This document shows, piece after piece, positions 61,605 through 61,907 of a stretch of 64,000 nt of DNA (positions are counted from its first letter, which is position 1; each line of letters starts with the position of its first letter). The position numbers and the translations under genes are program-made. Source of the stretch: a virus. Taxonomy: Duplodnaviria > Heunggongvirae > Uroviricota > Caudoviricetes. The notes below the pieces were generated by a model. That model did no database searches, had not been told where the DNA came from, and saw nothing but the letters and a program-made list of their open reading frames with translations. The stretch lies in the IMG/VR virus record IMGVR_UViG_3300042006_000024; one strand, given 5' to 3'.

Positions 61605-61907
61605 TTAACAGTTGCCTGAGGTGCGCAGATGTTCAAGCGCTTTGTCGTAGTGGCCATGTGAAGCGACCAGCGCTTTCTTGCACGCCATCAAACCTTCACC
61701 GGTGTGCCCATGTAAGTCCCTGACCATTTTAGCGGTGATCTCAACAGGCGGTCTGTTCAGCTCTTTCATCATGCGTTCAAGCTCGTTCCATCGCTTGTTC
61801 ATTTCATTGCGACCGGGGCATTTGTAATCTGCTACCTGGTTGAGAACAACACCCATTGCACTGATTGATTCATGCATCTTGTTGATAATCGCGATGATGC
61901 CGCTCAT
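61605..61907 (-). CDS. small protein with C-terminal EF-Ts N-terminal (EF-Tu-binding, UBA-like) domain
   Basis: [42 protein letters not shown] matches the EF-Ts N-terminus [24 protein letters not shown]. Confidence 0.55.

Follow-up and report, generated by a model that had tools for sequence, protein, structure and literature searches.

A phage protein that carries the EF-Tu-contacting TS-N domain of elongation factor Ts behind an unrelated helical hairpin

Introduction

What could a phage do with a single small domain of bacterial elongation factor Ts (EF-Ts), separated from the rest of that protein? The question is raised by a locus in a stretch of 64,000 nucleotides from a virus of the class Caudoviricetes (IMG/VR record IMGVR_UViG_3300042006_000024); the whole of this stretch is referred to below as the window. 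On its minus strand, an open reading frame (ORF) at 61605..61907 starts with ATG and encodes 100 amino acids, as read from the ORF list and the sequence. The product is a phage protein that has the EF-Tu-contacting, N-terminal TS-N domain of EF-Ts behind an N-terminal part unrelated to EF-Ts. It is a small accessory protein of two modules, encoded by a pf16-like (T4-type) phage.

A first-pass annotation of the window had reported this ORF, had recognized a copy of the TS-N domain in its last ~42 residues and had described the 55 amino acids before it as unrelated to EF-Ts. The C-terminal residues of the ORF are those quoted in that annotation, which named no strand. The same annotation had suggested that the protein serves as a decoy or adaptor for EF-Tu, redirects translation, or shields EF-Tu from toxins and abortive infection, and these functional claims are plausible as far as the sequence can tell.

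Domain identity and relation to bacterial EF-Ts

The TS-N domain (EF-Ts N-terminal, UBA-like) occupies residues 56-98 (61614..61742, minus strand) and is composed of three helices at residues 59-69, 73-82 and 87-97. These residues match the NCBIfam profile of tsf, TIGR00116, at model positions 3-45 with an E value of 2.2e-8 and 33.6 bits. A phmmer search of the PDB aligned the domain with residues 2-44 of E. coli EF-Ts (1efu_B) at E 1.4e-6; 21 of 43 positions are identical by our own count, and Foldseek gives an identity of 49%. The window protein also has a counterpart of the TGxGMMxCKKAL-type motif of EF-Ts. Judged from these alignments, the domain resembles the N-terminus of EF-Ts far more closely than chance would allow, and the assignment of the C-terminal ~42 residues to TS-N holds.

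A profile built from the window protein and its eight closest relatives was searched against 1.84 billion representative proteins and returned 7,890 matches at E <= 0.001. Family members apart, the best matches listed are N-termini of EF-Ts. They include tandem EF-Ts units in proteins of ~1000 amino acids, which we take to be chloroplast EF-Ts polyproteins. The Pfam model EF-Ts_N (PF25025), which was built on the mitochondrial domain, stays below its cut-off on the window protein (E 0.15; 12.5 bits against a gathering threshold of 33.2), and several members of the family carry a precomputed PF25025 match. A profile search had been proposed as the check on the TS-N claim: the tsf profile answers it with a significant match, and PF25025 alone remains at 0.15.

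The protein is not an EF-Ts, because it falls short of the whole-protein cut-off of TIGR00116 (104.05 bits, against the 33.6 obtained), has no PF00889 match (the EF_TS core and dimerisation domain) at E <= 10, carries the domain at its C-terminus and is encoded outside a tsf operon. It ends two residues past the TS-N domain, and the EF-Ts core with TDFV and the Asp80/Phe81 wedge is absent. Bacterial EF-Ts (tsf; TIGR00116/PF00889; 1EFU chain B, residues 1-54 for the N-domain) places TS-N first and follows it with the catalytic core, the coiled-coil and the C-terminal module, all of which the window protein lacks; here TS-N comes last, behind an unrelated hairpin. The bacterial gene is part of an rpsB-tsf-pyrH-frr operon, whereas the window gene belongs to a phage accessory block downstream of the gene for the RNA ligase RtcB. 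Among the profile collections for phage and defence proteins, the PHROGs scan of the window protein gave nothing significant (only phrog_7281 at E 0.17), no PHROG with an anti-defence annotation matched it, and neither did any PADLOC defence profile.

The TS-N domain of the window protein is identical to that of Pseudomonas EF-Ts at 22 of 43 positions and to those of other bacteria at up to 24 of 43. A recent capture from the host was considered and is unsupported, the identity to Pseudomonas EF-Ts being no higher than that to other bacteria. On the strength of these comparisons, the domain is read as derived from tsf, and not by recent capture.

Predicted fold and the N-terminal hairpin

The structure was predicted in two AlphaFold2 runs, with 9 and then with 52 aligned sequences. 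Both models show two modules, a helical hairpin followed by a Pro-rich linker and three short helices. The TS-N module is modelled with a predicted local distance difference test score (pLDDT) of 91-95, as a compact three-helix bundle that is superposable on the EF-Ts N-domain, and the homology is thereby significant in structure as well as in sequence. The model from the deeper alignment has a mean pLDDT of 86.4 and a predicted template modelling score (pTM) of 0.53, and this pTM leaves the mutual orientation of the hairpin and TS-N unfixed.

The N-terminal antiparallel hairpin (61758..61904, minus strand) is made up of helices at residues 2-23 and 32-50, with a loop, C30-x-G32-R33, that is conserved in close relatives. 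It is joined to TS-N by the proline-containing linker NRPPV at residues 51-55 (61743..61757, minus strand); AlphaFold2 leaves residues 51-58 free of helix, and 'NKPP' is conserved in close relatives. That the 55 amino acids before the domain are unrelated to EF-Ts is confirmed by an hhalign probability of 0.2% against full-length EF-Ts and by the lack of any sequence match in the PDB. On the same two results, the idea that the hairpin is a permuted form of the EF-Ts coiled-coil was rejected. In shape, the modelled hairpin resembles Rop, the ColE1 repressor of primer, but at 2% identity there is no sequence similarity between them, and the shape is a generic one.

Conservation and selection

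An identical protein was found on seven public metagenomic contigs, the longest of which is 162 kb. Orthologues at 60-80% identity keep both modules together with the same N-terminus and start position. The pairwise ratio of nonsynonymous to synonymous substitution rates (dN/dS) is 0.22-0.30 for the whole gene; taken separately, the hairpin gives 0.20-0.28 and TS-N 0.26-0.37. The gene is real, and both of its halves are under purifying selection.

A search with a profile of 24 sequences recovered ~50 clusters (at 90% identity) of hairpin plus TS-N proteins, 90-120 amino acids long, that score above the EF-Ts background. They are encoded on contigs of ~155-162 kb, which are pf16-like, and of ~100-112 kb; one of the ~100-kb contigs has annotated neighbours, namely helicase, primase and lipoprotein genes. 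Two members bear 'Elongation factor Ts [compost metagenome]' as an automatic NCBI label.

EF-Tu-contacting residues in the phage domains

The domains of 42 phage-family proteins were compared position by position with those of 83 bacterial EF-Ts, in E. coli numbering (window numbering is E. coli plus 54); this bacterial set, as well as a second one of 69, is a sample and not a census. The phage domains retain the near-invariant EF-Ts positions T4, A5, V8, L11, R12, T15, G16, G18, M19 and M20, and likewise C22, K23, K24, A25, L26, G31, A36, L40, R41 and G44. Some of these are probably kept for structural reasons. Taken together, the retained positions make up the pattern that would be expected were the partner still EF-Tu.

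Two of the positions are known as contacts from the crystal structure of the M. tuberculosis EF-Tu·EF-Ts complex, in which R13 of TS-N bonds to P114/E155 of EF-Tu and K24 forms salt bridges to D144/D145 (PMC9529903). R13, K24 and D77 are conserved across M. tuberculosis, E. coli and T. thermophilus EF-Ts, and a mutant of R13 alters the behaviour of the EF-Tu·EF-Ts complex in size-exclusion chromatography (PMC9529903). By our own alignment, M. tuberculosis R13 and K24 correspond to R12 and K23 of E. coli, the contact residues being taken from that one paper. Of the 42 family domains, 40 have arginine at the R12 position, as does every one of the 83 bacterial EF-Ts in the sample. Lysine occupies the K23 position in 27 of 42 and the K24 position in 36 of 42 family domains. 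The window protein has L73, M74, C76, K77 and K78 in this region, of which K77 is the equivalent of K23.

At position 17, glutamate is not confined to phages, being also found in the EF-Ts of P. putida, P. kilonensis, P. gingeri and P. caricapapayae; P. aeruginosa EF-Ts reads TGLG at the TGEG site. A bona fide metagenomic EF-Ts (P0071, L025 935..1825), which is encoded in an rpsB-tsf-pyrH-frr operon and whose N-domain is 56% identical to the window TS-N, carries the motif TGEGMMACKKAL followed by ...MRSSG. The combined motif TGEG...[AS]C is absent from 185,579 GTDB species genomes. As a phage-specific signature, it was partly rejected, since P0071 carries it and E17 is normal in EF-Ts of the P. 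putida group.

Docking on EF-Tu

EF-Tu is a hub of the conflict between phages and bacteria; it is bound by a T4 capsid protein and is targeted or exploited by contact-dependent inhibition (CDI) and Rhs toxins. Helix D of EF-Tu (residues 144-156) is known as the docking site of both EF-Ts and ribosomal L7/L12 (PMC5574714; PMC9825190). The Salmonella Rhs toxin TreTu has been modelled on helix D, and full-length EF-Ts largely prevents the ADP-ribosylation of EF-Tu by this toxin (PMC9825190). In addition, EF-Tu is cleaved by Lit and by the caspase-like protease of type IV Thoeris, and it is incorporated as a structural component into the Avs7 complex (PMC13581612).

The reading put forward here, to which we assign a probability of roughly 45%, is that the window protein acts by docking on EF-Tu. 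Judging from the retained TS-N surface, the module would dock on helix D in the G domain of host EF-Tu, as the EF-Ts N-domain does. Because the EF-Ts core and the Asp80/Phe81 wedge are absent, no nucleotide exchange by the known mechanism is expected. The protein would then be a non-catalytic occupant of the EF-Tu surface, whether as competitor, shield or tether. Its possible rivals for that surface are EF-Ts, ribosomal L7/L12 and the toxins that anchor on helix D. The hairpin may dimerise or bind a second partner, which would in this way be tethered to EF-Tu. The varied fusion partners of TS-N in other phage proteins, described below, fit a portable docking module. Docking is further supported by E17, which is shared with P. 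putida-type EF-Ts, Pseudomonas being the genus on which the nearest cultured relative grows. The purifying selection on both halves and the position of the gene in a variable block count on the same side.

Several points weigh against this proposal. The window protein itself has a histidine, His66, at the equivalent of R12, a key contact in the M. tuberculosis complex, and the equivalent of K23 varies (N, H or L) in the subgroup on ~100-kb contigs. A17E is found in 40 of 42 phage domains as against 0 of 83 and 5 of 69 bacterial EF-Ts, and D21A/S in 37 of 42 as against 2 of 83 and 0 of 69. These two systematic differences between the phage family and bacterial EF-Ts could retarget the TS-N surface. 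In full EF-Ts, moreover, TS-N forms part of the EF-Tu interface only, so that the isolated domain may bind weakly. EF-Tu is among the most abundant proteins of the cell, which makes stoichiometric sequestration or blanket occupancy costly, and three-helix bundles of the UBA-like kind bind many different partners. The codon of residue 66 lies at 61710..61712, where the window protein reads LHGHTGEG and close orthologues read LREHTGEG and LRAKTGEG; as the His66 allele is identical on seven independent contigs, it is no sequencing error.

If the docking reading is true, the window protein would be the first candidate phage factor to engage EF-Tu through the exchange-factor surface, and confirmed binding would make the TS-N module a compact, portable EF-Tu tag. 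Should binding fail, the family would be a case of a host translation-factor domain repurposed by phages. In either event, the family supplies natural variants, with R or H at a key contact and with several fusion architectures, in a protein of only 100 residues.

Alternative explanations

Within the docking reading, the purpose may be a shield or anti-defence role, a change in elongation, or recruitment, and we cannot choose among these with confidence. An anti-defence shield, in which occupancy of helix D or a change in the conformation or accessibility of EF-Tu would block cleavage or modification by effectors of the Lit, type IV Thoeris or ADP-ribosylating kind, is a sub-case of EF-Tu docking and is distinctly doubtful; in a variant of it, the protein would deny EF-Tu to defence complexes of the Avs7 kind. 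The protection of EF-Tu from TreTu by EF-Ts and the several defence systems that cleave or use EF-Tu speak for a shield, as do the position of the TS-N gene in a variable block where pf16 has an annotated anti-restriction gene and the presence in the same phage of other genes of a repair or counter-measure type (RtcB, NAMPT and MazG-like). Lit and Avs7, however, engage EF-Tu outside helix D, Avs7 through domains II and III (PMC13581612); the abundance of EF-Tu would demand very high expression; and the PADLOC and anti-defence PHROG comparisons of the window protein were both negative. A translation modulator that competes with host EF-Ts, L7/L12 or both, slows nucleotide exchange or delivery of the ternary complex and so contributes to early host shut-off or reprogramming is a similarly poor bet. 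It would suit a helix that serves both EF-Ts and L7/L12 (PMC9825190; PMC5574714) and a protein that can only compete, the catalytic core being absent, and a truncated EF-Ts of Caulobacter phage Colossus was earlier proposed as a translational modulator (PMC3556154). Against it, the phage's own translation relies on the same EF-Tu pool, there is no evident means to tell phage from host mRNAs, and the abundance of EF-Tu poses a problem of stoichiometry.

In the main alternative to docking, the tsf-derived fold would have been repurposed as a UBA-like module for a new partner, such as a phage protein, another host GTPase or a defence protein, with a function that has nothing to do with EF-Tu, and the systematic A17E and D21A/S, the R12H of the window protein and the varying fusion partners would all agree with this. 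We hold it to be unlikely, since an identity of ~49-56% to EF-Ts is high for a surface-rich domain of 43 residues, since nearly all EF-Ts-invariant positions, exposed basic and Met residues among them, are kept in divergent phage lineages, which would be unexpected after loss of the partner, and since E17 in bona fide Pseudomonas EF-Ts takes away its value as evidence of retargeting. A tRNA repair module centred on RtcB, to which the protein would bring EF-Tu or EF-Tu-bound tRNA, is very improbable. The order of RtcB, a gene of 166/183 amino acids and the TS-N gene is kept in four related contigs, with tight spacing, a stop/start overlap and no promoter or terminator in between, RtcB being encoded two genes upstream. 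This synteny is limited to pf16-like contigs with fetched flanks, where RtcB is 88-100% identical to that of the window, whereas RtcB was found in 0 of 15 more distant viral loci within fetched flanks of up to ~5 kb; pf16 has RtcB without the TS-N gene, and no neighbour is conserved across the groups. A general functional link to RtcB was rejected on the ground that, in the flanks covered, co-occurrence is missing beyond the pf16-like contigs. The view that the ORF is spurious, or that it is what remains, without function, of a piece of tsf captured from a host, has nothing but the small size of the gene in its favour and is hardly credible: dN/dS is 0.2-0.37 across both halves, the ORF is intact in ~50 clusters, the N-terminal module and the start are conserved, and the AlphaFold2 fold is confident. 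The conservation data refute it.

Phage proteins with TS-N or other parts of EF-Ts

The nearest published precedent is gp247 of Caulobacter phage Colossus, a truncated EF-Ts of 98 amino acids and, like the window protein, a phage-encoded EF-Ts fragment of ~100 amino acids (PMC3556154). By its description, gp247 is set apart from the window protein, as it consists of subdomain N of the core, including the F81 wedge (IPR014039), whereas the window protein has TS-N only (PMC3556154). According to that published description, the two are complementary, and not homologous, pieces of EF-Ts. In the literature searched, gp247 alone turned up and no study of stand-alone phage TS-N proteins was found; such proteins carry only automatic 'EF-Ts-like' labels.

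The TS-N module was also found in further phage protein architectures with different partners. Ralstonia phage RSP15 (NC_030948, 110782..110994, plus strand) has an unannotated ORF of 70 amino acids in which TS-N comes first and is followed by a CPHCGK tail; it sits between ORF136 and the gene for the single-stranded DNA-binding protein, in a cultured phage, and was missed by annotation. An ORF of ~75 amino acids in a 485-kb uncultured phage combines a coiled-coil with TS-N, proteins of 63-75 amino acids with an N-terminal TS-N are encoded on viral contigs of 7-93 kb, and a phage protein of 253 amino acids has an internal TS-N. On another T4-type contig, a protein of 327 amino acids (P0041, L027 6001..6984) is a fusion of a small-ORF homologue, TS-N and DUF551. 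The first part of this fusion is homologous to the 64-amino-acid ORF of the window at 60059..60250 (minus strand; 39% identity, E 8e-13). In the window, the same block holds that small ORF and the TS-N gene as two distinct genes, and on the near-identical contig L003 a DUF551 gene lies upstream of RtcB.

In a structure comparison with BFVD, A0A345BRQ1 (85 amino acids) aligned with the whole of the model (28% identity in 87 columns, E 2.8e-3). A weak, structure-only match (E 1.8) was obtained with the 'Elongation factor Ts-like protein' of Sinorhizobium phage phiN3 (A0A0F6WCQ0, 59 amino acids), which did not turn up in the first 50 kb of the phiN3 genome. Like the window protein, the RSP15, phiN3 and A0A345BRQ1 proteins are small phage proteins with a TS-N-like three-helix domain; they differ from it in their flanking modules, the phiN3 protein having little beyond the domain. 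No neighbour gene was found to be conserved across the groups of TS-N proteins.

The window protein is a known host domain placed in a new architecture and a new context, where its role is probably non-canonical. One may go further and suppose that large lytic phages of several lineages carry an unstudied class of 'TS-N adaptors', which would seize helix D with a tsf-derived N-domain joined to varied partner modules and would protect or commandeer EF-Tu against Lit-like proteases, type IV Thoeris, Avs7 and ADP-ribosyltransferases. This broader view is speculative, and we would not expect it to hold in full. If true, such adaptors would represent a new EF-Tu-centred strategy of anti-defence or host takeover.

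A tblastn search of phage records with four TS-N queries recovered, apart from contaminating bacterial tsf, only RSP15, the 485-kb uncultured phage and two contigs of fecal origin filed as 'Bacteriophage sp.', and a query from the group with N-terminal TS-N found nothing in these records. Full bacterial tsf genes are present in six records filed as phage (OQ572403.1, OR844988.1, OR846595.1, OR848793.1, CAKLQF020000002.1 and AFYI01000001.1), one example being P. aeruginosa EF-Ts in the record of 'Pseudomonas phage Y1'. Such records appear to be contaminated with host DNA or to be bacterial contigs filed wrongly. Four metagenomic proteins, P0038 (386 amino acids), P0079 (241 amino acids), P0032 (130 amino acids) and P0044 (184 amino acids), contain two or three TS-N-like repeats without the EF-Ts core.

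Genomic context

The window belongs to a T4-type phage, with genes for topoisomerase II subunits, baseplate wedge proteins, NrdA and nicotinamide phosphoribosyltransferase (NAMPT). Its NrdA is 82% and its RtcB 84% identical to those of Pseudomonas putida phage pf16 (Chakrabartyvirus), in which the counterpart of RtcB is gp31. At the DNA level, a megablast search found no match to the region in 50,697 phage records.

RtcB (62476..63696, minus strand; PF01139, E 4e-129; phrog_1075, E 1.6e-149) is the first large gene of a densely packed minus-strand run. It is followed by a gene for a helical protein of phrog_3806 without an assigned function (61907..62458, minus strand), which has 183 amino acids as listed or 166 if the start is the Met of MNQEQ... 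near 62407. The 166/183-amino-acid gene adjoins the TS-N gene in four related contigs (L001-L004), and its product has homologues in Klebsiella, Aeromonas and other T4-like phages; in the searches of phage collections, no TS-N match was found in the records with these homologues. The TS-N gene (61605..61907, minus strand) is complete, as shown by the ORF list, the sequence and the 60-80% identical orthologues with the same N-terminus. Its ATG (61905-61907) has one base in common with the TAA stop of the gene upstream (TAATG on the coding strand). Downstream, a gene for a protein of 95 amino acids with no function assigned (61302..61589, minus strand) starts 15 nt past the stop of the TS-N gene and is syntenic in close relatives. 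From RtcB through the 166/183-amino-acid gene and the TS-N gene to the genes after them, no promoter-like or terminator-like site was found in between.

In pf16 (NC_041881, 8113-17330), compared with window positions 60200..62460, RtcB is kept and all six following genes are replaced. The replacement set includes the annotated anti-restriction protein gp30, the membrane protein gp29 and others, and the TS-N gene was not found in pf16. Because the gene set after RtcB is wholly different there, the position downstream of RtcB is a slot for variable accessory genes.

The same minus-strand block contains a fragment of a MazG-like pyrophosphatase (60692..61024, minus strand; phrog_1247, E 2.7e-15) and a phrog_4049 protein (60207..60734, minus strand; E 7.2e-38). 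In the ORF list, neighbours within this block overlap each other by some tens of bases, so that some true starts probably lie further downstream. Elsewhere in the window, NAMPT is encoded as a protein of 564 amino acids at 6194..7888 (minus strand; phrog_448, E 1.5e-178); NAD+ salvage genes of this type help phages to withstand defence systems that deplete NAD.

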